A stretch of DNA of 64,000 nucleotides from an uncultured Eubacterium sp. GTDB lineage: Bacteria; Bacillota; Clostridia; Lachnospirales; Lachnospiraceae. A program made the translations under genes and the position numbers. The stretch is taken from the NCBI GenBank assembly GCA_910586225.1, contig CAJUIL010000014.1, forward strand, positions 22,966-86,965, written 5' to 3'. The notes below the pieces were generated by a model. That model saw only the letters and a program-made list of their open reading frames with translations. It had not been told where the DNA came from and did not search any database. Positions 1,582 to 37,545 of the stretch are shown here, in pieces (the first letter of the stretch is position 1; every line of letters begins with the position of its first letter).

Positions 1582-1770
1582 CTATTCCTTAATCCTGTCC
1601 AGCTCTGTCAAATTCACACCCATGCTTGACAAAACTACTTTTAATTCTACATATCTTTTATACATAGACTCATATACTTCCGGCACCTTATCTTTAATCG
1701 GTATCATCCAGTCTTGCAGCCTAGACAGCTCTGTCACGTAATCTTTTACAATATCCGCTTGTGATGGCAT
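1582..1770 (-). CDS. Small conserved hypothetical protein (62 aa), paralog of 34770..34961
   Basis: ATG at 1768-1770 with RBS AAGGGGGAG. The C-terminal motif VLSSMGVNLTELDRIKE is shared with the ORF at 34770..34961 (VLTSLGVNLTDIDKIKE). The stop context GATTAAGGAATAGGAGG is identical in both copies. Confidence 0.6.
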   Translation of the reverse strand: MPSQADIVKDYVTELSRLQDWMIPIKDKVPEVYESMYKRYVELKVVLSSMGVNLTELDRIKE

Positions 1771-1859: not shown

Positions 1860-1902
1860 TTGACAATCTCTGGATTTTGATTTATTATGTAGCTTGCTAC
1901 AT
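1860..1902 (+). promoter_or_regulatory. Sigma-A promoter (TTGACA-17-TATTAT) plus perfect palindrome ATGTAGCTTGCTACAT, likely the MarR operator
   Basis: -35 at 1860-1865 and -10 at 1883-1888, with a 17-bp spacer. A palindrome with 7-bp arms at 1887-1902 overlaps the -10/+1 region directly upstream of the MarR gene. Confidence 0.55.
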
Positions 1903-1923
1903 ATCCGAAGGGAGTATCCGTAT

Positions 1924-2358
1924 ATGGACGAGCTGAAATGCTATTTTAAAAAGATCCATAACCAGCTGGAAGCCAGCTTTACCCGTGCCCTGCGCAATTA
2001 CGGCCTGACCTGTACCCAGTTTGACGTGCTTGCCTATCTTTTTTATCACACGGAAAGCCCAAATACGCTTACTGGTATTTCCTCTTACTTTGGCGTCCGT
2101 CATACGAGTGTGATCCACGTACTGAAAATATTAGAAAAAAAGGGTATGATCTCCAAATGCGCATCTGCAGATGCCCGCACAAAAACCATTTCGCTGACGC
2201 AGAACGGACAGCAGGTCGTTGCTAAGATCAACGAACGCTGCCCCGCACTGGATGGCATTGTCTTTGCAAAGCTTTCCGAAACTCAGCTGCATCTTTTAGA
2301 GCAAATGCTTATGCAGATTCTTGAAAATCTGGAATCAGACGCCTTCCAAAATTTTTAA
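1924..2358 (+). CDS. MarR-family transcriptional regulator
   Basis: 145-aa winged-helix MarR-like sequence. RBS GAAGGGAG. Sits upstream of a MATE efflux gene, the classic repressor-efflux arrangement. Confidence 0.8.
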   Translation: MDELKCYFKKIHNQLEASFTRALRNYGLTCTQFDVLAYLFYHTESPNTLTGISSYFGVRHTSVIHVLKILEKKGMISKCASADARTKTISLTQNGQQVVAKINERCPALDGIVFAKLSETQLHLLEQMLMQILENLESDAFQNF

Positions 2359-2379: not shown

Positions 2380-3789
2380 ATGAAAGACAAAACGACAGAA
2401 ATATTCAGAGATGCTCCGGTACCAAAAGCAGTCATCAGCAATGTGATCCCATCAATCATCAGTATGATCATGGTGCTGGTTTATAATCTCGCTGACACCT
2501 TTTTTATCGGGCAGACAAAAAACGCTTATATGGTAGCTGCCGTTTCCGTTGCCACTCCAGCTTTTTTGCTGTTTATGGCAATCGGTATGCTGTTTGGCAT
2601 TGGCGGTACGTCCTTGATCTCCCGGACGCTGGGTGAAGGCAATGCACAAAAAGCCAAAAACGCTTCCTCCTTTTGCTTTTGGACGGGACTTGGGATTGGA
2701 ATTATTTCTATGGTCGCCGTCTTTTTTGCCGCTGTCCCGGTCAGTATGGCGGTCGGCGCCAGTGCGGATACGGTTGGCTATGCTTCCCAATACCTTCGTA
2801 TCGTCTCTACCGCCATCCCGTTTTTGATCATCAGCAACAGCTTTAGCAATATTATCCGCGCGGAGGGTAACGCGCAAGTAGCTATGATGGGTATGATCAT
2901 CGGTAACCTCATCAATATTGTACTGGATCCGGTCATGATCCTGGGCTTTGGCTGGGATGTAGCGGGCGCCGCGATCGCAACTGTACTCGGCAATGTCTTT
3001 GCAGCCGTCTTTTACATCCGCCACCTGCTTTCCAAAAAAGCTATGCTTTCCATCCATCCAAGATATTTCCTTGCAGGAAACGGCATTGCTTCCGGCGTGC
3101 TTGCAATCGGCATTCCGGCATCGCTCAACAGCATTTTAATGAGCCTTTCCAATATCGTCGTCAACAATATTATGGCAGGCTACGGGGATATGGCAGTTGC
3201 AGGACTCGGCGTCGCTATGAAGGTCAATATGATCGTCGTAATGCTCCTCATCGGGCTTGGAACCGGAATCCAGCCAATCTTGGGCTATTGCTTCGGCGCC
3301 GGTAACCGCAAACGCTATCTGGACGTGCTGAAATTTTCACTGATCCTGGCGTTTGGATTGAGCGCTGTTATGACAGTCATCTGCTACTGCGGCGCAGATC
3401 CGCTCGTCCATGCATTTTTAGAGGACGCGGACGCTTTTGCTTATGGGATGTCCTTTGCGCGCATTTACATCTATTCCGGCCCGGTCATTGGCCTGATGTT
3501 TGTATTCATCAATGCCATCCAGTCCGCCGGCGCGGCAATTCCAGCGCTGATCCTATCGGTCAGCCGCCAAGGACTGATCTACCTGCCCGTTTTATTTTTA
3601 TTCCGTCAGATTTTTCATTCCGCTACAATGCTGGCGGCTGCGCAGCCGATCACTGATTATCTGACGACGGCTCTTTCGGTCGTGCTCTTTGTTTTTACTT
3701 ACCGGAAATATTTTCCGAAAGAGGCAGTAACAAAGCCTGTAAAGAACAGTATTTCGGACCAGCCTGAAAGAAGTCATGCTGTATCTTAA
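2380..3789 (+). CDS. MATE-family multidrug efflux transporter
   Basis: 469 aa with 12 predicted TM helices and a two-fold-repeat MATE/NorM-like sequence. RBS AAAGGAG. Confidence 0.85.
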   Translation: MKDKTTEIFRDAPVPKAVISNVIPSIISMIMVLVYNLADTFFIGQTKNAYMVAAVSVATPAFLLFMAIGMLFGIGGTSLISRTLGEGNAQKAKNASSFCFWTGLGIGIISMVAVFFAAVPVSMAVGASADTVGYASQYLRIVSTAIPFLIISNSFSNIIRAEGNAQVAMMGMIIGNLINIVLDPVMILGFGWDVAGAAIATVLGNVFAAVFYIRHLLSKKAMLSIHPRYFLAGNGIASGVLAIGIPASLNSILMSLSNIVVNNIMAGYGDMAVAGLGVAMKVNMIVVMLLIGLGTGIQPILGYCFGAGNRKRYLDVLKFSLILAFGLSAVMTVICYCGADPLVHAFLEDADAFAYGMSFARIYIYSGPVIGLMFVFINAIQSAGAAIPALILSVSRQGLIYLPVLFLFRQIFHSATMLAAAQPITDYLTTALSVVLFVFTYRKYFPKEAVTKPVKNSISDQPERSHAVS

Positions 3790-3924
3790 ATGTTCAAATG
3801 CAAAGTTAAAATAGTTGAAAGGAAAAAGTCCTTCTGGTGTGGTTTTTTGTATAGATATGTAATATTTATCTACAAAGATAAGAATGTGTTGGCAGAATGT
3901 TTGTCAGGACAGCCTAATAAACAA

Positions 3925-3967
3925 GCGCAAAGGCTTTGATGTGGCTTTGCGCTTGTCGTGTGTACTT
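3925..3967. terminator. Stem-loop terminator (ACAAGCGCAAAGGC...GCTTTGCGCTTGT), probably bidirectional
   Basis: 13-bp near-perfect inverted repeat. A T tract follows on the minus strand (cttgtttatt), after the MATE gene and the Rpn-like fragment. Confidence 0.5.
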
Positions 3968-3978
3968 TATAGGGTACA

Positions 3979-4203
3979 TTATAAATATTCACTAACATCT
4001 TTTTCAGTGAGGCAGTATTTTTGCATGATCAGTGTTTTGATCTCATCATTTCCGCGTCCAAAGTCCCGCAGTATATCTACCGCACCTCGAATACCTTTTT
4101 CCATGCCGCTTTTTATACCTTTTTCTAGAGCGTTTTGTTCTCTTAAAATAACCGTGTTCTTTAAAATAGCTGAACAGACCGGCTGGCTTTGTATCACGGA
4201 CAA
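3979..4203 (-). pseudogene. C-terminal fragment of an Rpn/YhgA-like (PD-(D/E)XK) recombination-promoting nuclease / putative transposase
   Basis: EKGIKSGMEKGIRG... repeats and a C-terminal tail typical of the Rpn family. An in-frame stop lies two codons upstream of the TTG start, and there is no nuclease domain. Remnant only. Confidence 0.4.
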
Positions 4204-16253: not shown

Positions 16254-16333
16254 TGCCGCTGATGGGACTTGAACCCATATGGTTTCCCGTACGATTTTGA
16301 GTCGTATGCGTCTGCCAATTCCGCCACAGCGGC
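16254..16333 (-). tRNA. tRNA-Leu (anticodon CAA)
   Basis: Reverse complement GCCGCTGTGGCGGAATTGGCAGACGCATACGACTCAAAATCGTACGGGAAACCATATGGGTTCAAGTCCCATCAGCGGCA. It has a 7-bp acceptor stem, anticodon stem TACGA/TCGTA, loop CTCAAAA with anticodon CAA, an extra arm, and a T-loop GGTTCAAGTCC. No encoded CCA. Confidence 0.75.
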
Positions 16334-18294: not shown

Positions 18295-18470
18295 TGCAAC
18301 CCGTTACTGAAAACTTATAAAAAGCTATAAACTTTTATGTTCCATTCCTACTTCATTGTATATGCTTTTGATTTGTATTTCTACAATATCTACTTACAAA
18401 TTCTTGTACACTCCATAGGCGTAAATTCCTGACTAACGAATCAGTACATATCTGTATGAACTTGAAAATG

Positions 18471-30224: not shown

Positions 30225-31310
30225 CTATATCATCCACATGATGTAGAAAAGAATATACAGCACCGCACCTGTGATCCCTGTAAGTCCAAGCAGCCATTTC
30301 AGGTACGCAGCCTTATCAAGCGGCAGATCTCCCGCCATTTTCCCGCTTTGACCATTCATGGCAAAAAGATAATTTTGTCCGTTCCATGTCGTACTCAGCA
30401 GCCAAACCGGAAATAGTGCATATTTTACTTTGCCATTGTGCAGCCGGATGCTTCCTGACTCTTTCCTGACAGTTGCATAACCGCGCACCGTTGCGTCAAA
30501 AGCCTCCTGCGCGCTTTTTTGGATCCGCTCATTGGCGCGCCCGATGCTTTCTTTACTATCCACATCATATTTGTCCGCCAGATAGCCTGCCAGATACGCA
30601 GTCTGAAAATCCACCGCTTTTGAAAAATCAAAAGGCTCCAGTGATTCCATTAAATCATCGGCCATTTTTGTCGAACCGTCTACCGGAACGTGCTTAAATT
30701 CCATGCTTCCGCCCCTGCTGACATGATAATAATCTGTTTCGGTATAAAAATACCTGCTGTCGCTCCATGTCCGGACTTTGGTTGCCTTGTAGCGCATATC
30801 TACATCGGCTCCGGCATCAAACAGCCAAAACGGAACATATACGCCTTTTACCTCATTCACATGGTTTTCGTCTTTAAATGCTTTTGGAAGCAGCCGTTTG
30901 CCGGCATAAAAATTGGATAGCGCCTGTTTTGCGGCTTTTTTATCCAACTGAAACGGTATCACATGATCCGGCCTTCGCGCGCCTGCAAACTGTCCCATCA
31001 TAACTACCGGATTTCCGCAAAACGGGCAGGATGTAGCCGCCGTATTTTCATCACACGCAATCTCCCCGCCGCAAGATCCGCAGACATAAGAACGCAGACC
31101 ATCTGCCTCGCCGTCCTGCCATTCGCTTGCGGCAGCCTCTTCCCATTTCAGTTCATCTGGCTGATCGTTTTTCAGCTCGCTGTCATAGCCTGCCAGCGTT
31201 GCCACCTCAAATTCCGTATCGCAGTATGGACACTTCATTTTCTGCGACGTACTGTCAAAAGCAATGGCACCGCCGCAGCACGGACATTTATATTCTTGTA
31301 TTGCTGCCAT
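30225..31310 (-). CDS. Double zinc-ribbon protein with C-terminal TM anchor (YdjG-like)
   Basis: Two CPxCG-type ribbons (CPCCGG...CPYC, CGSCGG...CPFCG), about 200 aa of alpha+beta domain, and a C-terminal TM helix. Confidence 0.55.
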   Translation of the reverse strand: MAAIQEYKCPCCGGAIAFDSTSQKMKCPYCDTEFEVATLAGYDSELKNDQPDELKWEEAAASEWQDGEADGLRSYVCGSCGGEIACDENTAATSCPFCGNPVVMMGQFAGARRPDHVIPFQLDKKAAKQALSNFYAGKRLLPKAFKDENHVNEVKGVYVPFWLFDAGADVDMRYKATKVRTWSDSRYFYTETDYYHVSRGGSMEFKHVPVDGSTKMADDLMESLEPFDFSKAVDFQTAYLAGYLADKYDVDSKESIGRANERIQKSAQEAFDATVRGYATVRKESGSIRLHNGKVKYALFPVWLLSTTWNGQNYLFAMNGQSGKMAGDLPLDKAAYLKWLLGLTGITGAVLYILFYIMWMI

Positions 31311-31348
31311 TTTCTTTCCTCGTAACTTCCTGTTTTTTCATGGATGCT

Positions 31349-32653
31349 CTATTTTATATCATTCTCATCAAATTTATCGCCGCATTCCGGGCAGAACTTT
31401 GGCGGATGCGCAGAATCCTGCGGTTCCCATCCACACTTATCACATCGATAGAGCGGCGTACCCGCTGGTTTCTTAGAACCACAGTTCTGACAGAACTTTC
31501 CCTTATTTAACGTACCGCAGGAGCAAGTCCATCCGGCGCCGTTTACTGGTTTTGCAGCGCCGCATTCCGGACAGAAATTGCCGGATGCCGACGCTCCGCA
31601 CGCACATCTCCATGCTTCCGTCTGCGCCTGCTGCTGTCCTGTCTGCTGCCCCATCACAAACAAATTTTGTGCATTCATGCCGCCTCCCGCATTCATCGCC
31701 ATGCCCATGCCTACAAAACCATTCATCGCTCCGGCAGGATTAGCCGCTGCTGCTTTCATAGCATCTGCCTGCGCACCTGCCAAAGTAGCCGCTGCCATAT
31801 TCGGATTTTGCATCACAGCTGTACGCTGAAGCTGTTTGATCATCTCTGCGTCTTCTTCCGGCAGGGTTACCGAACCAAGCGCAATGCTGACCACCTTTAA
31901 TCCCCGCAGCTCCTCCCATTTCGCCGAAAGCGCGGCGTTCATCGCCTGTTCCAGTTCTGTCGTATGCAAAACGATCTGATTTGGGCGCATCTCCATCGCA
32001 GATAGTCTGCCAAACGCAGGCTGTAAAGCACTGATAAATTCCGTTTTTAACTGGCTTTCTAATTCATCACGCGTATAATCCTCCTGCACATTGCCGCAGA
32101 CATTCGCGTAAAACAGCAATGGATTCGTTATTTTATACGAATATACCCCAGAACATCGAATGGAAACATCCACATCCAATCCGATTTTTGAATCTACCAC
32201 ACGAAAAGGGATCGGATTCGGCGTACCAAATTTATTGTCTGTCAGCTCCTTTGTATTAAAATAATACACACGCTGATCCTTGCCGGTATCTCCGCCATAT
32301 GTAAAACGCTTGCCAATCGTCCGAAACGTCTCTAAAATCCCTTTGGAAAGTCCGCCTGTAAAAATACTCGGCTCCGTAGACATATCATACCGAAACTCTC
32401 CTGGTTCCGCACATACCTCAACCACTTTTCCCTGTTCTACAATGATCATGCACTGACCATCAGCTACCGCAATCCCGCTTCCGTTTGAAATAATGTTGTC
32501 ATTCCCTTTTTTATTTGAAGAACGAGAGACTGTGCGTTTGCGTCCTTTTGTAACCATAACATCTTTTTCCATCGCGTCGCAGTAAAAAAACTCCTTCCAC
32601 TGATCCGCAAGCGTTCCGCCCAATGCGCCCACTCCTGCTTTGATAAGTCCCAT
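31349..32653 (-). CDS. SPFH/band-7 (YdjI-like, PF13421) protein with C-terminal multi-zinc-ribbon tail
   Basis: N-terminal Band_7_1-like domain, a Gln/Ala/Met-rich linker, then six CxxC pairs (CACG..CPEC..CSCG..CQNCG..CDKCG..CPECG). Sigma-A promoter TTGAAA-17-TATAAT upstream. Confidence 0.65.
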   Translation of the reverse strand: MGLIKAGVGALGGTLADQWKEFFYCDAMEKDVMVTKGRKRTVSRSSNKKGNDNIISNGSGIAVADGQCMIIVEQGKVVEVCAEPGEFRYDMSTEPSIFTGGLSKGILETFRTIGKRFTYGGDTGKDQRVYYFNTKELTDNKFGTPNPIPFRVVDSKIGLDVDVSIRCSGVYSYKITNPLLFYANVCGNVQEDYTRDELESQLKTEFISALQPAFGRLSAMEMRPNQIVLHTTELEQAMNAALSAKWEELRGLKVVSIALGSVTLPEEDAEMIKQLQRTAVMQNPNMAAATLAGAQADAMKAAAANPAGAMNGFVGMGMAMNAGGGMNAQNLFVMGQQTGQQQAQTEAWRCACGASASGNFCPECGAAKPVNGAGWTCSCGTLNKGKFCQNCGSKKPAGTPLYRCDKCGWEPQDSAHPPKFCPECGDKFDENDIK

Positions 32654-32819
32654 AAAAATCTCCCTTCTGTATTTTATCTTTATTTTGCTTGTTGCTGGTA
32701 ATCGTTACATAGGTTACATTATAATATGAAATGCCTATTTTTTCAATTAGGATTGCAGACACGAAAAAAAGACTATCTTATCACTTTGCATAACGGCTCA
32801 AAACCGCCCATATTTTTTC

Positions 32820-32861
32820 TTGAAAACAGGTGGCAGTCTAATATAATATAGAAAAAACGAG
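32820..32861 (+). promoter_or_regulatory. Strong sigma-A promoter (TTGAAA-16-TATAAT), near-identical duplicate of the promoter at 34713-34754
   Basis: cttgaaaacaggtggcagtctaatataatatagaaaaaa versus cttgaaaataggtgacaatctgatataatatagaaaaaa (about 90% identity over 42 nt). Confidence 0.6.
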
Positions 32862-33421
32862 GATGGATGTGGGGGAGCTTGAAAAACTTCGTGGACATGA
32901 CTGCGAAACAAAGTCATTCAAACGGCTGGCATTTCCTGATCCGGTACAAAGACGGGAGCATCCCGTCAGTTGCAGAAGCATACCGCAGCATACGTGGTTA
33001 TGGCGGATCAAACAGCCTGGATGGTACAATAGCCAGGGAATACCCAAGAAAAGGGAAAGTAAACAAAAACTGCATATGGAATGGGTTACAGCCTGACGCC
33101 GGAAATAGAAGAAACGCAGGAAAAAACAGAAAAACCAAAATGCTCGCTTTCCAGTGGCCACAGTAAACGCAAGATTTCTCACTTCGGATATCTATCTTTG
33201 ACAAAGGAAATTTTACAATGACAAGAGCCGAAAAAAGATATGAGAAGAAAAAGTTTGGAAAAGATTTTGCCTCTTTCTGCCAGATTCCGCATCGGGTTAA
33301 AAAACAGCTCAAATAAAAGAACTGTTTTTTAACCCGAATAAAAAATAACGAAAGCAGCTTTCAATGCTGCGATTGCCGTAAAACCGTTTCCTTTCTCCGA
33401 AACATATGCTACAATGCTGTT

Positions 33422-34582
33422 ATGAAAGTACATGAACTGAGTTTTTATTCAAAATTTCAATGCGCAATGGGAAGCTGCCCCAACACTTGCTGCCATGGCT
33501 GGCAGATTGTATTAGATCATGACACGGTGCAAAAATATATGGAAAAAAAGGGCCGTCAGGGTCTTTGGCTGCGTAGCAGCCTCACAAGCCATAACGGGGC
33601 GATCCTGTTTAAAGGTTCAAGAAGAAAGTGTCCGTTTCTGTCAAAAGACCTGCTTTGCAAGATCCAGCTTTCCCTTGGCGAAGAATATCTCTCTGACGTA
33701 TGCCGCATTTTCCCTCGTCAGAGAATAAACTATGGATATTTTGCCGAAGAGTCGCTTTTTCTTGCATGTCCACAGGTTTGCAGGTTATTTTTAAACAACT
33801 TGGATCATTTATGCTATAAAACGACAGACCGGAACGTATCCTACGCAAAATCCGGAACGAATGACGACGCCGAATATTTGCAGGAATTAGTGGAAATCCG
33901 TCTTGCGTTAACGGAGCAGATTATGAATCATCCCCTGCCGCGTCCCATGCTTTACACAGGACTGCTATCTTACGCAAAAGCTCTGCAGCAGTCTTATATT
34001 GCAAACTATGCTCTATCAGACGGTTCAAAAAGTTCTTACTTTAGCAAACCGGTGCACACGGATCTTGCCGCCCATATCCGGGAAGCGGACACTCCTTTTA
34101 TCATACCGCATGATATTACTTACGCGATGCTGACCGGCAGTTTTTATCACATCTTTTTAAAGATGGTCTCACCGTTTTTATATAGCCTATGCCGGACATA
34201 CCTGAAAGAATTTAAATGGCTGACATCCGCCAAAGGAGATACAAAGCTCAGTGTGCTTTTGGAGCAGCTGCATGTCCATCATCCGAATACGGAACGCATT
34301 TTGCGCGGATATCTGACTTACTATCTGCTGGAAAAATTTCTGACCGTTTATGAAGACTACAGCTTTCTTCACAACATTGCCACAGGAATTATGCACACCC
34401 ATCTGCTGGAACTGTTTTTTGCTCTTTACCATGAGAAAAATCACCGCCTGACAGACGACGATATCATCCGGATTATTACCGTTTATAACCGCAGAGGGAG
34501 ACATAATGATGAAATTGAAACGGAAATGTATGAAAAGCTAAAGCGTTTTTTAGACGCGCCGGCAGGAAAACAGCGCCCATAA
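33422..34582 (+). CDS. YkgJ/FliB-family protein (CxxxxCxxxCC putative Fe-S/zinc cluster; flagellin lysine-N-methylase-like)
   Basis: N-terminal CAMGSCPNTCC motif with FliB-like length (386 aa). The ATG follows directly after a TACAAT -10 with no RBS, so the mRNA may be leaderless. Confidence 0.5.
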   Translation: MKVHELSFYSKFQCAMGSCPNTCCHGWQIVLDHDTVQKYMEKKGRQGLWLRSSLTSHNGAILFKGSRRKCPFLSKDLLCKIQLSLGEEYLSDVCRIFPRQRINYGYFAEESLFLACPQVCRLFLNNLDHLCYKTTDRNVSYAKSGTNDDAEYLQELVEIRLALTEQIMNHPLPRPMLYTGLLSYAKALQQSYIANYALSDGSKSSYFSKPVHTDLAAHIREADTPFIIPHDITYAMLTGSFYHIFLKMVSPFLYSLCRTYLKEFKWLTSAKGDTKLSVLLEQLHVHHPNTERILRGYLTYYLLEKFLTVYEDYSFLHNIATGIMHTHLLELFFALYHEKNHRLTDDDIIRIITVYNRRGRHNDEIETEMYEKLKRFLDAPAGKQRP

Positions 34583-34769
34583 GGCAGAATGCAGGCAGGC
34601 CCGGCCCTGAGCGCCGTCCTGCTTAGAGTGTGTCTTAAAATTGATGGTATTTATGGTAAGCGTGCTGATTTAATTTTATGCAGATGGTATCCTATGATTA
34701 TATATTTGAGTCTTGAAAATAGGTGACAATCTGATATAATATAGAAAAAATGCAAGGAAGGGTGATCGT

Positions 34770-34961
34770 ATGCCAAGTAACGGTGAAATTGTAAGAGATA
34801 CCGTTGATCAGTTTCAGAAAGTGCAAGCACATATGAAAAATGCAAAAGAAGAGAATGCAGTTAAAACATATGAAGGTTTGAAAAATGATTATTTATCATT
34901 AAAAGCAGTATTAACTTCTTTGGGTGTTAATCTTACTGATATTGATAAGATTAAGGAATAG
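34770..34961 (+). CDS. Small conserved hypothetical protein (63 aa), paralog of 1582..1770
   Basis: Promoter at 34713-34740, RBS AAGGAAGGGTGAT. C-terminal VLTSLGVNLTDIDKIKE. Same stop context as the paralog. Confidence 0.6.
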   Translation: MPSNGEIVRDTVDQFQKVQAHMKNAKEENAVKTYEGLKNDYLSLKAVLTSLGVNLTDIDKIKE

Positions 34962-35253
34962 GAGGCGAGAGAGATTTCACCGGTATCAGAAGCAAAGAAG
35001 CAGTATTTGAAAAGATGGAGCGTGAACCATGATACGCTCTATTTTTTTTGAGCCAGAAACAAGACACCCGGCATCCCGAAATTTTCTGTATGATTCCTGT
35101 AAATTCCAAATATTGCAAATAACAGGAAATCCACCAACGGGATTCCCTTGTTATCGCCCTGCGTCACAAAATCCACTGACGATGCGCCGTCCGGTTTCGT
35201 ATCGTAATTACCAGCCAGCGCGGTCATCATTTTTTCTGAATGCGCAATCTGTT

Positions 35254-37545
35254 TTAGTTTTCATCCTGCCCCAGCGCTGCACGATAATTTTTTCCATGCT
35301 CATAGAATTCATTTTGCATACTGACGCTCGTCGGCAAGCCGGACATCCACTTCGCTTCTTCCGTAAGCACAGCCGCGTCTGTACCTTGCACCGGATTTAA
35401 CGCGATCCCATCATACAAGTATATTCCATTTACGAAAAATGGTTCGTCCTCGACATAAAAAATATTTACATAACCGTACATAGCGACCACCGACTGATCC
35501 AGCATACAATAAGAAATCTCAGAGTTGTAGTCTCCGGTCTGCCATTCGTATAACCGGAAAAACCCCATCCTCCTGCCGTCCATCGCAGGCGCATCCCCCA
35601 GTTTTTCTATCGCCTGCCGTCCCGCTTTCATGATAGGGAGCAGATATTTTGCCATACGCTCCCAAGAAACGCGCTCTTTGTATATCCCGCTGCCGGAAGG
35701 ATCAATAATTTTCATAATCTCCTCATACTGCTGCCCATACACTTCCGCCTGAGAGCGATCCGTTAGGATCGTACGATAAAGCTGGTATGCAAAACGCATC
35801 TGAGATGCAAGCAAATACATCTGCTCACAGACCGCATCGCGGTATTCTTCCAGGCTGATCGCCTGGTCACCGTACAGGCTCTGCAAAATACACAGATTCT
35901 GATACTTCGTACTCATATCGCAGCTTTCATCCACAAGACTGTCCAGGAAATATAAACGCCCCTCCAGCTCCTCTACAGCTGCTCTGGCATCTGTCACGCA
36001 TTGCAGACAAGCATCGCTGATCGATTCATTCATATCGGCCATATTTTTGTAATAAACATCGCTGGCGTCGATCATGCCAGAGGCCGCAAGACTAAAAAAC
36101 AGTCCGCCCGGAATATATTTTGCAATTTTTCCAACTGCATAATTCAGCTGATTATTTTCTTGCACCCACTCGCTGCCCGCCATATCGTACTGGGCTTCAA
36201 AATTTTTGATAGAATAGTTCCTGACAGCCTGACAGTCTGAGTCAATCTGCCAAATCTGCTTCCGATATCCGCTAAGCGGCTCTAACAGCTTTTCCCCTAC
36301 ATCCCGAATACCCTGAAAAACCTCAAACGCAGTATCATATTCTGCAATCTTCGCCTTTAACTGTTCTGCCTGCTGCGCCAGTGTGCCGGCAGGTTCCGCT
36401 TCATCCTCCGTAACTTCCGGCAGCTCCATGCCAATAGCTTCTACTACATCTTCCGGCACATCGAATGAACTTTCCATACACTGCTTTTGATCCAGCATCG
36501 CAATCATGACCTCGTTGCGCACATACTGCCGATACACTGTTTCCATTTTCTCATAGCACTGTTTCCAGTCGAAATCAGCTCCTTCGCCAGAAACGCCCAG
36601 CTCCTCCAAGATATTGCCAAACTGGGAGTATTGATACATCATCTCTCCCATATCCTCGGACGACACCTGGCTTTTCTCCAGAAAAGCCGCTATTTCCTGC
36701 GTAGAATCCTGCGCGCTTTCCGACAGCTGCGATAAAAGAGCCGTGGGGGTCTTATCATAATCCAAAACCCCGCTGATCTCCCCGATCAACCCGCCCGCCA
36801 TCTCATCTGCCAGATCTTCATAAGATGCGCCTTCCAGCAACCCTTTTGCCGCGCTTGCCAGCCCTCCGGTCGTTTGATCCAAAATAGAAAGCGCATACTT
36901 TTGCGGTATCTCCTGAATTGCTGCCGTAACGCCATTTGTTACAGAATCCGCCGCACTGCTTAAAGCGTCTGTCAGGCTGCCGCTGGATCTGAATGCCTCC
37001 AACGATCCGGAAACCCCGTTTCTCAAGATCTCACGCACATCGTCATTCGCAATCTCCGACAGGATACTGTCTGTAACCGTATCTGTAATCAAATCCTTAT
37101 ATTCGCCGATCGCCGCATCCACGGCGCCGCCGGACGAAAAGCCGTCTGGAACCTCCACGCCGATGCTCCCCATTACAAGCGTTTTCATCTCCACTGCTAA
37201 AAGCGTATTCTCCTGATAGCATCGGAGCATTTCACTCTGGATCAATTCTTCCAAAGACAGATCTGTGATCTCTTTTAACGTATCCTGACATCGCTGCGCT
37301 GCTTCCCTCTGCTGCCTATAACCGGACATCTGTATTTCCAGCTTTGCTTTCAGCTTTGCAAGATCCGTTTTTGATATCTCATCTACCCGGCGCAATCCCT
37401 CCGCCTCATCCGGCTGCGCCTCCCTGACGCCCGCTTCCTGCTGCTTGTCTTCCACAGCTGTCTTATGACAGCCTGCTATGGGAAATGTGAGGATAAAAAC
37501 CGTAACAAGCAGAATAACAGGCAGAAAACATTTGTTATTTCTGTT
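35254..37545 (-). CDS. Large lipoprotein of unknown function (about 760 aa)
   Basis: The start MNRNNKCFLPVILLVTVFILTFPIAGC has a lipobox, after a G-rich RBS. Largely alpha-helical, acidic, no recognised domain. Co-oriented and contiguous with the upstream YD-repeat lipoprotein. Confidence 0.6.
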   Translation of the reverse strand, partial: NRNNKCFLPVILLVTVFILTFPIAGCHKTAVEDKQQEAGVREAQPDEAEGLRRVDEISKTDLAKLKAKLEIQMSGYRQQREAAQRCQDTLKEITDLSLEELIQSEMLRCYQENTLLAVEMKTLVMGSIGVEVPDGFSSGGAVDAAIGEYKDLITDTVTDSILSEIANDDVREILRNGVSGSLEAFRSSGSLTDALSSAADSVTNGVTAAIQEIPQKYALSILDQTTGGLASAAKGLLEGASYEDLADEMAGGLIGEISGVLDYDKTPTALLSQLSESAQDSTQEIAAFLEKSQVSSEDMGEMMYQYSQFGNILEELGVSGEGADFDWKQCYEKMETVYRQYVRNEVMIAMLDQKQCMESSFDVPEDVVEAIGMELPEVTEDEAEPAGTLAQQAEQLKAKIAEYDTAFEVFQGIRDVGEKLLEPLSGYRKQIWQIDSDCQAVRNYSIKNFEAQYDMAGSEWVQENNQLNYAVGKIAKYIPGGLFFSLAASGMIDASDVYYKNMADMNESISDACLQCVTDARAAVEELEGRLYFLDSLVDESCDMSTKYQNLCILQSLYGDQAISLEEYRDAVCEQMYLLASQMRFAYQLYRTILTDRSQAEVYGQQYEEIMKIIDPSGSGIYKERVSWERMAKYLLPIMKAGRQAIEKLGDAPAMDGRRMGFFRLYEWQTGDYNSEISYCMLDQSVVAMYGYVNIFYVEDEPFFVNGIYLYDGIALNPVQGTDAAVLTEEAKWMSGLPTSVSMQNEFYEHGKNYRAALGQDEN

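Follow-up and report, generated by a model that had tools for sequence, protein, structure and literature searches.

A promoter copy with no gene behind it

What is made from a strong promoter that stands in front of no convincing gene? This question is raised by the 768-bp gap between an SPFH operon and a fliB-like gene in the window, by which we mean the whole analysed stretch of 64,000 nucleotides. The gap contains P1, a near copy of the promoter (P2) of a gene encoding a 63-aa protein. A preliminary description had proposed that P1 drives a transcript of ~470 nt ending in a hairpin, which might be an sRNA, a leader peptide or regulatory RNA, or a decayed paralog whose promoter had survived. 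The two promoter copies are located as follows.

32818..32857, + strand: promoter copy P1, with -35 TTGAAA at 32820-32825, a 16-nt spacer and -10 TATAAT at 32842-32847
34711..34750, + strand: promoter copy P2 of the 63-aa gene (34770..34961), with -35 at 34713-34718, -10 at 34735-34740 and TG ahead of the -10

Ungapped alignment of 32818-32857 with 34711-34750 yielded 36 identities in 40 positions, all four differences being transitions, and the likeness stops abruptly at 32857 and 34750, respectively. With one gap, a weak likeness runs ~12 nt further upstream (TATATTT..TC). A degenerate 38-mer derived from both copies matched the window only at 32820-32857 and 34713-34750 and had no match in 100 dinucleotide shuffles, which bears out the duplicated promoter block of the preliminary description. 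P1 and P2 each read TTGAAA-16 nt-TATAAT (11 of 12 positions to consensus) and share 12 of the 16 spacer positions; by their hexamers and the criterion of a 16-18 nt spacing, both are predicted sigma-70-type promoters. Transcription from P1 would start near 32853-32855. As had also been described, the region is divergent from the SPFH promoter, for which a promoter-like site is present on the minus strand at 32746-32718.

Among 185,579 species-representative genomes (GTDB), the promoter pattern TTGAAAANNGGTGNCANTCTNATATAAT was found in a single one, that of Eubacterium plexicaudatum ASF492, in the same two places, and it had no match in the JGI metagenome collection. This distribution indicates that P1/P2 is a local, species-specific duplication. 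A regulon-wide or otherwise widespread regulatory motif is ruled out by the same counts. The exact sequence of the 63-aa protein occurs in 104 collection blocks, and a second paralog is encoded at 1582..1770 of the window, indicating that this family has been duplicated before. In the closest SPFH relative (85% protein identity), homology spans the SPFH promoter region and stops at window position ~32787, ~30 nt before P1. No P1-like sequence was detected at up to 8 mismatches in the loci of 80 SPFH relatives, none of which had a 63-aa, fliB-like or transposase gene near SPFH. Thus, P1 lies on the variable, species-specific side of a junction. The P1 40-nt core was invariant in 7 strain alleles, a small sample in which the 30 nt upstream comprise four polymorphic sites. 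An invariant, near-consensus core hints that P1 is perhaps still under selection and drives something useful.

Fragments of two insertion sequence copies downstream of P1

Only five bases (CGAGG) separate the end of the P1-P2 similarity from sequence that corresponds to fragments of an insertion sequence (IS). P1 itself was ruled out as a part of this IS; IS homology does not begin until 32863, within the transposase gene, and the part of the IS that precedes this position bears no relation to P1. The interval up to the fliB-like gene is composed of the following features, in which residue numbers refer to a transposase model that is a composite of fragments from different copies.

32867..33166: 99-aa ORF
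32863..33096: 77-aa ORF
32863..32897, + strand: IS relic A, piece 1, transposase residues ~107-118 (MDVGELEKLRG, matching ..SKMDTGELEKLR..; tblastn), 83% DNA identity to L023 518-552
32897..32930, + strand: IS relic A, piece 2, residues ~209-220 (DCETKSFKRLA), 88% to L023 825-858
32921..33089, + strand: IS relic A, piece 3, residues 253-308 (NGWHFLIRYKDGSIPSV...KVNK, frameshift, KLHMEWV; tblastn)
33084..33158, + strand: IS relic A, piece 4, residues ~315-343 (GYSLTPEIEETQEKTEK ... LAFQW; tblastn E 2e-6), 74% to L014 5259-5324
33159..33193: non-IS spacer, which in cassette-bearing strains lies ~110 bp downstream of an immunity gene
33194..33286, + strand: IS copy B, 5' fragment, 24 nt of transposase 5'UTR with ribosome-binding site (AAAGGAAAT) and codons 1-23 (MTRAEKRYEKKKFGKDFASFCQI)
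33292..33370, + strand: IS copy B, 3' end, with sub-terminal hairpin (33292-33337), A-rich tail and degenerate right inverted repeat at 33356-33370 (CAGCTTTCAATGCTG)

Overall, the pieces displayed 70-88% amino acid identity to transposase relatives (E 2.5e-28, 2e-6 and 1.2e-9) and 74-88% DNA identity to IS copies in the unrelated contigs L014, L017, L018 and L023. No further pieces of the same IS were detected in the window outside 32863-33370.

In relic A, the alignment places the start of homology at 32863 with none before it. The sequence counterpart of piece 2 is NDCETKAFKRLA, carried by P0009-P0016. Pieces 1 and 2 are joined by a deletion, and L001-type strains retain 71 bp more, reading ..QMIH..LLRRRKFEDARFLG. 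Within piece 3, 32921-33067 corresponds to residues 253-301 (88% identity, tblastn E 2.5e-28) and 33067-33087 to residues 302-308 in another frame; DNA identity of this piece to L014, L017 and L023 amounts to 83-88%, and P0003-P0007 match at the protein level. Piece 3 and the L018 copy have the same 97-bp internal deletion, by which the ..VLADSLYASEPVF.. (..LADSLYA..) segment is gone and with it the second catalytic Asp. This common deletion indicates that the window relic descends from an already defective lineage. In piece 4, 33084-33134 matches residues 315-334 in a third frame, and the match then proceeds to 33158 (..LAFQW) back in the frame of 32921-33067. It stops at a deletion junction at 33158, while the L006 reading goes on as FQWLTDLTV. 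Over 300 nt, the frame that matches the transposase thereby changes three times, and the number of internal deletions is four or more. Judged by the loss of an intact reading frame, the window IS is a relic and not a live element.

Accordingly dissected, the 99-aa and 77-aa ORFs are artefacts of deletion-joined, frameshifted transposase pieces. A database search with the 99-aa ORF yielded short fragments only, e.g. P0003-P0007 (E 1e-16 to 1e-22), of which P0005 and P0007 read LADSLYASEPVFKCIKDNGWHFLIRYKDGSIPSVAEEYRS...KLHMEWVPEIDYRGYSLTLLALEIEE...FQWLTDL..NAGEFA.AGRRRW. It is also resembled (..SNGWHFLIRYKDGSIPSVAEAY..) by the transposase C-terminus (..DSGWRYILRYKEGSIPTVSDEY..) of a further IS in ASF492. 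Pfam had no match to any of the five region ORFs on both strands. In some assemblies, gene callers annotate a 75-aa or 105-aa ORF in the region, and such 75-105-aa "hypothetical proteins" are spurious. The earlier statement that no convincing gene lies downstream of the first promoter copy therefore agrees with our finding of only transposase fragments there. The suggestion of a decayed paralog was right in that decayed sequence lies beside a surviving promoter; the fragments are those of an IS transposase, not of a paralog of the 63-aa gene.

The 5' fragment of copy B is 79-86% identical at the DNA level to L017 3265-3353, L018 2985-3063 and L023 173-265 (tblastn E 1.2e-9), and the N-termini of P0010, P0011 and P0012 read MTRAERRNE.KKYGKDFASFCRI. 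The 32-aa ORF, which the preliminary description had reported along with the 99-aa ORF, exists as well but was placed one base off; it occupies 33218..33316 and comprises 23 transposase codons followed by 9 codons through the hairpin arm. By its composition, it is a transposase N-terminus that a deletion has brought together with the final 79 bp of the IS. These last 79 bp are 85% identical to L014 5806-5883, located ~150 bp past the transposase stop. The right inverted repeat at 33356-33370 matches in 11 of 15 positions, and both left ends are deleted in the window. Unique sequence restarts at 33371, the right end of the IS being positioned 51 bp upstream of the fliB-like ATG. A classification as a MITE or internally deleted non-autonomous IS fails, as copy B starts at IS position ~86 and has kept the right repeat but not the left one.

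The insertion sequence belongs to no named family

From the comparison of its copies, the IS would be ~1.6-1.7 kb in size, with 16-bp terminal inverted repeats (ACAGCTCTGAAAGGTA) and a DDE_Tnp_1 transposase that has a DDE_Tnp_1_assoc N-terminal domain. Three IS copies lose mutual homology at the same left point, where they start with ACAGCTCTGAAAGGTA. At the right end of the L018 copy stands the exact reverse complement of ACAGCTCTGAAAGGTA (IRL CAGCTCTGAAAGGTA, IRR TACCTTTCAGAGCTG). Longer relatives, obtained with an N-terminal query from one such copy, begin with MTRAERRNEKKKYGKDFASFCRIMKLYFPDF.. and run through ..SKMDTEELEKLRSQMIH.., ..SKNDCETKAFKRLAEKLKK.. and ..VLADSLYASEPVF... The Pfam matches to DDE_Tnp_1_assoc and DDE_Tnp_1 are carried by these longer relatives (P0014, P0016 and P0047); P0014 scored 36 bits for DDE_Tnp_1_assoc (PF13808, cutoff 32.3) and P0047 scored 23.0 bits for DDE_Tnp_1 (PF01609, cutoff 23). 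On these domain matches, the transposase is classified as a DDE homolog of the DDE_Tnp_1 type (IS4 superfamily/ISNCY-like).

Membership in the IS4 family as defined by NCBIfam/ISfinder was rejected, the composite transposase scoring 29 bits against cutoffs of 115 and 152 for two IS4 models, and scores for the NCBIfam IS1380, IS1634, IS701 and IS1182 models were far below cutoff. A plasmid search for an intact, named IS returned only distant matches of ~26% identity that are annotated as ISNCY family or hypothetical. No intact full-length copy was found among 5.8 billion proteins, the longest ORF having 281 aa, and a literature search for the Pfam domain name found nothing. We concluded that the IS is a new representative, as yet unnamed, of a familiar kind of element. 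As a separate observation, the 80 SPFH-relative loci lack transposase genes just as they lack the 63-aa and fliB-like genes.

The hairpin is a sub-terminal structure of the IS

The stem-loop that had been described as 9 bp is real but larger, with a 16-bp outer stem at 33292-33337 and a predicted energy of -24.2 kcal/mol. The L014 hairpin is separated from the transposase stop by ~150 bp and lies directly inward of the right repeat. A stem of 14-16 bp is formed in L014, L018 and the window despite differing arm sequences, as obtained from three separate folds; in a three-sequence RNAalifold run the window row was misaligned by one column, and its pair counts were not used. No T run follows the hairpin on the + strand, where GAATAAAAAATAAC comes next, and the hairpin was not listed in a terminator scan. 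A stem followed by GAATAAAAAATAAC and not by a U-tract indicates that the hairpin is not a terminator for P1 transcripts, and a discrete ~470-nt transcript ending there is not supported. The T run of L014 and L018 comes after the stem when the strand opposite to the transposase is read. This is how a terminator against outside transcription entering the IS would be arranged. In the window, the opposite-strand T run has been lost through internal deletion.

The Rfam covariance-model scan for which the preliminary description had asked gave no relevant match: none within the region at gathering score in a scan of the whole window, and only chance matches for 31000-36500 at E up to 5 in Rfam 15 (mir-1544, E 0.95, on the hairpin; FTX_2, E 4.2). 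A putative 487-nt transcript folds somewhat better than shuffles (z = -2.86), and this is mostly due to the one IS hairpin.

Four structural alleles among Eubacterium plexicaudatum strains

The window is assigned to Eubacterium plexicaudatum, a mouse-gut member of the Lachnospiraceae that belongs to the Altered Schaedler Flora. We obtained strain contigs by exact-protein look-ups with the fliB-like, 63-aa and SPFH proteins; their flanks were 95-100% identical to the window. The interval between SPFH and the fliB-like gene occurs in four structural alleles, all with an IS relic.

Allele 1, window type (L003, L007, L009, L010)
Allele 2, L006 type: past 33158, a 131-aa HNH-motif ORF, a 166-aa ORF, a homolog of 33158-33198 and a different 117-bp module
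Allele 3, L001/L011/L012 type: as L006, the HNH-motif protein having 260 aa with a signal peptide
Allele 4, ASF492 (L008/L013): a 1,676-bp IS on the opposite strand, inserted at window 33061-33070

In allele 3, the region of the 99-aa ORF has 71 extra bp and lacks 20 bp. The IS of ASF492 has 17-bp inverted repeats and a 10-bp target duplication, AAACAAAAAC, which is window 33061-33070. A cassette with an HNH-motif toxin and an immunity gene stands in place of 33158-33353 in some strains; its Pfam support is weak (HNH, E 0.03-0.08; SUKH_6, E 0.004), and a promoter of its own, TTGACA-17-TAAAAT, precedes the toxin gene. Identity of window 33158-33198 to L006/L008 2417-2457 and L001 3775-3815 amounts to 95-98%.

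The structural differences between the alleles indicate that the proposed transcript body is not conserved as a unit even within one species, and this polymorphism among same-species strains conflicts with the sRNA, leader-peptide and regulatory-RNA readings. The preliminary description had named lack of conservation in close relatives as an argument against its proposal, and this lack was found for the transcript body but not for the promoter core. No empty-site allele or ancestral arrangement was present among the exact-protein loci, the loci of fliB-like homologs and the 80 SPFH-relative loci. In this member of the Altered Schaedler Flora, the locus is a hot spot at which IS have driven rearrangement; a toxin-immunity cassette varies in presence or absence between strains, and a strong promoter without cognate gene lies beside a gene with a conserved leaderless-type promoter. 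The latter is located as follows.

33407..33424, + strand: fliB-like promoter, with extended -10 TGcTACAAT (33407-33415), 6 nt and ATG at 33422; no Shine-Dalgarno sequence, leaderless-type

Homologs with 63% and 69% protein identity, situated in the unrelated contexts L028 and L032, are preceded by the same arrangement, TGyTACAAT-N6-ATGAAAGTACATGA. Such fliB-like homologs (63-69% identity) reside in unrelated contexts, never beside a 63-aa homolog or SPFH. As the fliB-like and toxin genes have predicted promoters of their own, P1 does not appear to be needed for its neighbours.

Origin of the locus

Taken together, we put at roughly 0.88 the probability that the region is a decayed patchwork of two copies of one IS behind an orphan copy of the neighbouring promoter. 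Readings as an sRNA, leader peptide or small-protein gene are rejected. In the 768-bp gap, P1 is followed by the debris of both copies, copy A keeping internal transposase pieces only and copy B the transposase start and the last 79 bp of the IS. The interval from P1 to the fliB-like gene would formerly have contained two IS copies in direct orientation. Copy A still has its own right repeat just before the toxin promoter in L006- and L001-type strains, whose copy B has shrunk to the right repeat and, joined to it, ~30 bp of left end; in these strains, the two copies bracket the pair of HNH-motif toxin and SUKH-like immunity genes. At the window junction, ..TTCCAGTGGC of copy A meets CACAGTAAACGC.., a sequence that elsewhere lies ~110 bp downstream of the immunity gene, which fits a deletion of the cassette in the window allele with its junction at 33158. 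Copy B of the window keeps IS positions ~86-178 and the last 79 bp. Its internal deletion differs from that of the L006 type, suggesting for both a more complete ancestral copy. The order in which the two IS copies, the cassette and the deletions came about has been reconstructed.

P1 itself is probably still an active promoter, and its transcript would be functionless by itself, reading through the hairpin toward the fliB-like gene. P1 may have outlived a gene that it once drove and that was lost in an IS-associated deletion, or else it may be one of two arms duplicated when the intervening segment was acquired. The outcome is mainly one of clean-up, as it strikes the region from the candidate loci for an sRNA or small protein and traces the odd ORFs, the hairpin and the weak ribosome-binding site all to a dead mobile element.

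Alternative explanations

A bona fide sRNA or cis-regulatory RNA extending from P1 to the hairpin, possibly an IS-derived domesticated RNA, is very improbable. The strong promoter, the stable 16-bp hairpin and the z-score of -2.86 for the fold of the whole region argue for it, but no Rfam family was matched even at E up to 5, a U-tract is missing from the + strand after the hairpin and the T run in intact IS copies lies on the opposite strand. In addition, the body is disrupted in strains of the same species (71-bp and 20-bp indels, the 1.68-kb IS and the cassette replacing 33158-33353), and every segment is accounted for by transposase coding sequence or IS ends. We give hardly any credence to the 99-aa, 77-aa or 32-aa ORF as a functional small protein or leader peptide. 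Annotation of a 75-aa or 105-aa ORF in some assemblies is in its favour, as is a plausible ribosome-binding site of the 32-aa ORF, although this site is inherited from the transposase gene. Against it, L001-type strains have the 99-aa frame disrupted by their 71-bp and 20-bp indels, and gene callers call nothing there; the transposase-matching frame switches three times in 300 nt, and the sole SD-like motif overlaps with or directly adjoins the ATGs at 32863 and 32867. Moreover, the 32-aa ORF is absent from the L006, L001 and L008 alleles, and no Pfam match was obtained.

It is possible, though unlikely, that P1 works as an additional promoter upstream of the fliB-like gene, and in other strains also of the cassette, with the IS debris forming a long 5' leader. 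Read-through from P1 would then add to or modulate the leaderless-type promoter, which is compatible with the composition of the region as IS debris, the sole point of difference being a role of P1 today. P1, the relic and the fliB-like gene share one orientation, no + strand U-tract is present past the hairpin, which is missing from the terminator scan, and the P1 core is invariant among strains. Translation of a long transcript would be possible in L001, L006 and L008, where the fliB start is overlapped (ATGA) by a 36-aa ORF that has a ribosome-binding site. However, the window has neither an upstream ORF coupled to the fliB start nor a Shine-Dalgarno sequence, so that a long-leader mRNA would be poorly translated, and the fliB-like gene keeps TGyTACAAT-N6-ATG in species without P1. 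The toxin gene likewise has its own TTGACA-17-TAAAAT, and in ASF492 the 1.68-kb opposite-strand IS splits P1 from everything downstream.

We regard it as rather improbable that P1 and P2 are the arms of a 40-52-bp direct repeat, generated when the IS copies, the cassette and the fliB-like gene now between them were inserted at ~+5 of one ancestral promoter of the 63-aa gene and left as an att-like or duplication-junction scar. P1 and P2 are indeed direct repeats at a distance of 1,893 bp, and what they enclose is exactly the IS relics and the fliB-like gene; four transitions in four differences are expected after divergence from one sequence. The fliB-like homologs elsewhere are never beside a 63-aa homolog or SPFH, and the whole block is missing beside the SPFH operons of the 80 relatives. 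Yet the bracketed segment contains no integrase or recombinase, a repeat of 40-52 bp far exceeds the 10-bp target duplication of the related IS, and no empty site was found. The limits of the repeat are moreover those of a promoter (about -50 to +4), which fits retention by function. There is a slim chance that selection keeps the P1 core, with P1 and P2 sharing an operator for one regulator in their spacer or with read-through tuning the fliB-like promoter by interference or occlusion; if P1 read-through did so, IS decay would have made a new regulatory leader.

Comparison with known systems

As a decayed patchwork of IS copies, the region resembles known IS remnants such as intergenic DDE transposase fragments and solo IS ends. 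It has internal pieces in several frames, nested or adjacent copies and internal deletions between short direct repeats, and it has kept a terminal inverted repeat and the sub-terminal hairpin. Presence/absence and indel polymorphism are further common traits, and the ASF492 relic carries a further related IS with its 10-bp target duplication. Unlike the remnants of named elements, the window IS belongs to no named family and is represented by fragments of at most 281 aa only. The alleles of L001, L006 and L008, with relic A and its own right repeat before the toxin and immunity genes and a second IS remnant after them, are reminiscent of a composite transposon. In contrast to such a transposon, neither IS copy is alive any longer, the outer left end has been lost and the window does not contain the cassette.

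The near-consensus P1 without a cognate gene, with IS sequence starting 5 nt on, is comparable to orphan promoters left after IS-mediated deletion. It differs from these in being neither IS-borne nor a hybrid -35/-10 promoter, and it abuts an internal part of the transposase gene instead of an IS end. That it is a 90% copy of a neighbouring promoter is unusual. At promoters of leaderless mRNAs, an extended -10 is placed such that transcription starts at the A of the AUG. The fliB-like gene adjacent to the region, with TGcTACAAT, 6 nt, ATG and no Shine-Dalgarno sequence, is predicted to follow this arrangement, which thus concerns the neighbouring gene and not the region downstream of P1.

A strain-variable cassette between the IS remnants

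Related gut Clostridia have SPFH / Zn-ribbon / TPM operons whose synteny with the window stops just past the SPFH promoter (window 32654-32787 against L042 290-386, the contig of the closest SPFH relative). At this point the closest relative instead has the terminus of a convergent ORF.

Between the two IS remnants, other strains of E. plexicaudatum encode a secreted HNH-motif protein of 260 aa (shortened to 131 aa in some strains). Next comes a 166-aa protein that matches SUKH_6 weakly.

Location of the HNH-motif / 166-aa cassette in other strains
L001 2382-3666
L006 1411-2308
L008/L013 (ASF492) 3130-3973

The two proteins likely represent a toxin/immunity pair with its own promoter. The cassette varies from strain to strain within the species and does not occur in the window, where the junction is located at 33158.

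In the ASF492 reference genome, a second, related IS resides inside the relic (L013 1234-2909), inserted at the equivalent of window 33061-33070. This element has the inverted repeats CAGCTCTGACGATTAAA and a 10-bp target duplication, AAACAAAAAC, and its transposase is encoded on the opposite strand, split into ORFs of 296 aa and 134 aa. In this strain, the orphan promoter copy P1 is cut off from everything downstream by the inserted IS.

Most of what survives of the relic's transposase family, in contigs from gut metagenomes, appears to be defective. All database representatives (P0003-P0051) are fragments of at most 281 aa, and the best DNA copy of the IS, on the unrelated contig L023, carries a stop codon at the position of a Trp in its relatives. 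One 97-bp deletion is common to the window relic and the copy on another unrelated contig, L018; further DNA copies lie on L014 and L017.

Start of the fliB-like gene

Start regions of the fliB-like gene (FliB_C) and its homologs
33407-33424 (window), promoter/start region
L028 ~3960-4003, homolog, with TGyTACAAT-N6-ATGAAAGTACATGA
L032 ~1900-1945, homolog, with TGyTACAAT-N6-ATGAAAGTACATGA

In the window, an extended -10 element, TGcTACAAT, ends exactly 6 nt upstream of the fliB-like ATG, and no Shine-Dalgarno sequence precedes the gene. Since the same arrangement is kept before homologs of 63% and 69% identity, whose genomic contexts are unrelated, a conserved leaderless mRNA is suggested for the fliB-like gene. 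In ASF492 (L013 4234-5517), the frame is open for 41 more codons upstream, through the IS left-end/right-end remnant, and automatic ORF lists therefore report 427 aa rather than about 386 aa.

Further features of the window

The 63-aa small protein has a paralog, encoded at 1582-1770 (-), with 43% identity across the full length and a common C-terminal ..L.RIKE. The promoter of the paralog differs from that of the 63-aa gene, and the paralog adjoins ORFs of 154 aa (1894..2358) and 469 aa (2380..3789).

RNAs matching Rfam at gathering score
5513-5733, minus strand, cobalamin riboswitch
16254-16333, minus strand, tRNA
18345-18419, minus strand, RAGATH-18 RNA
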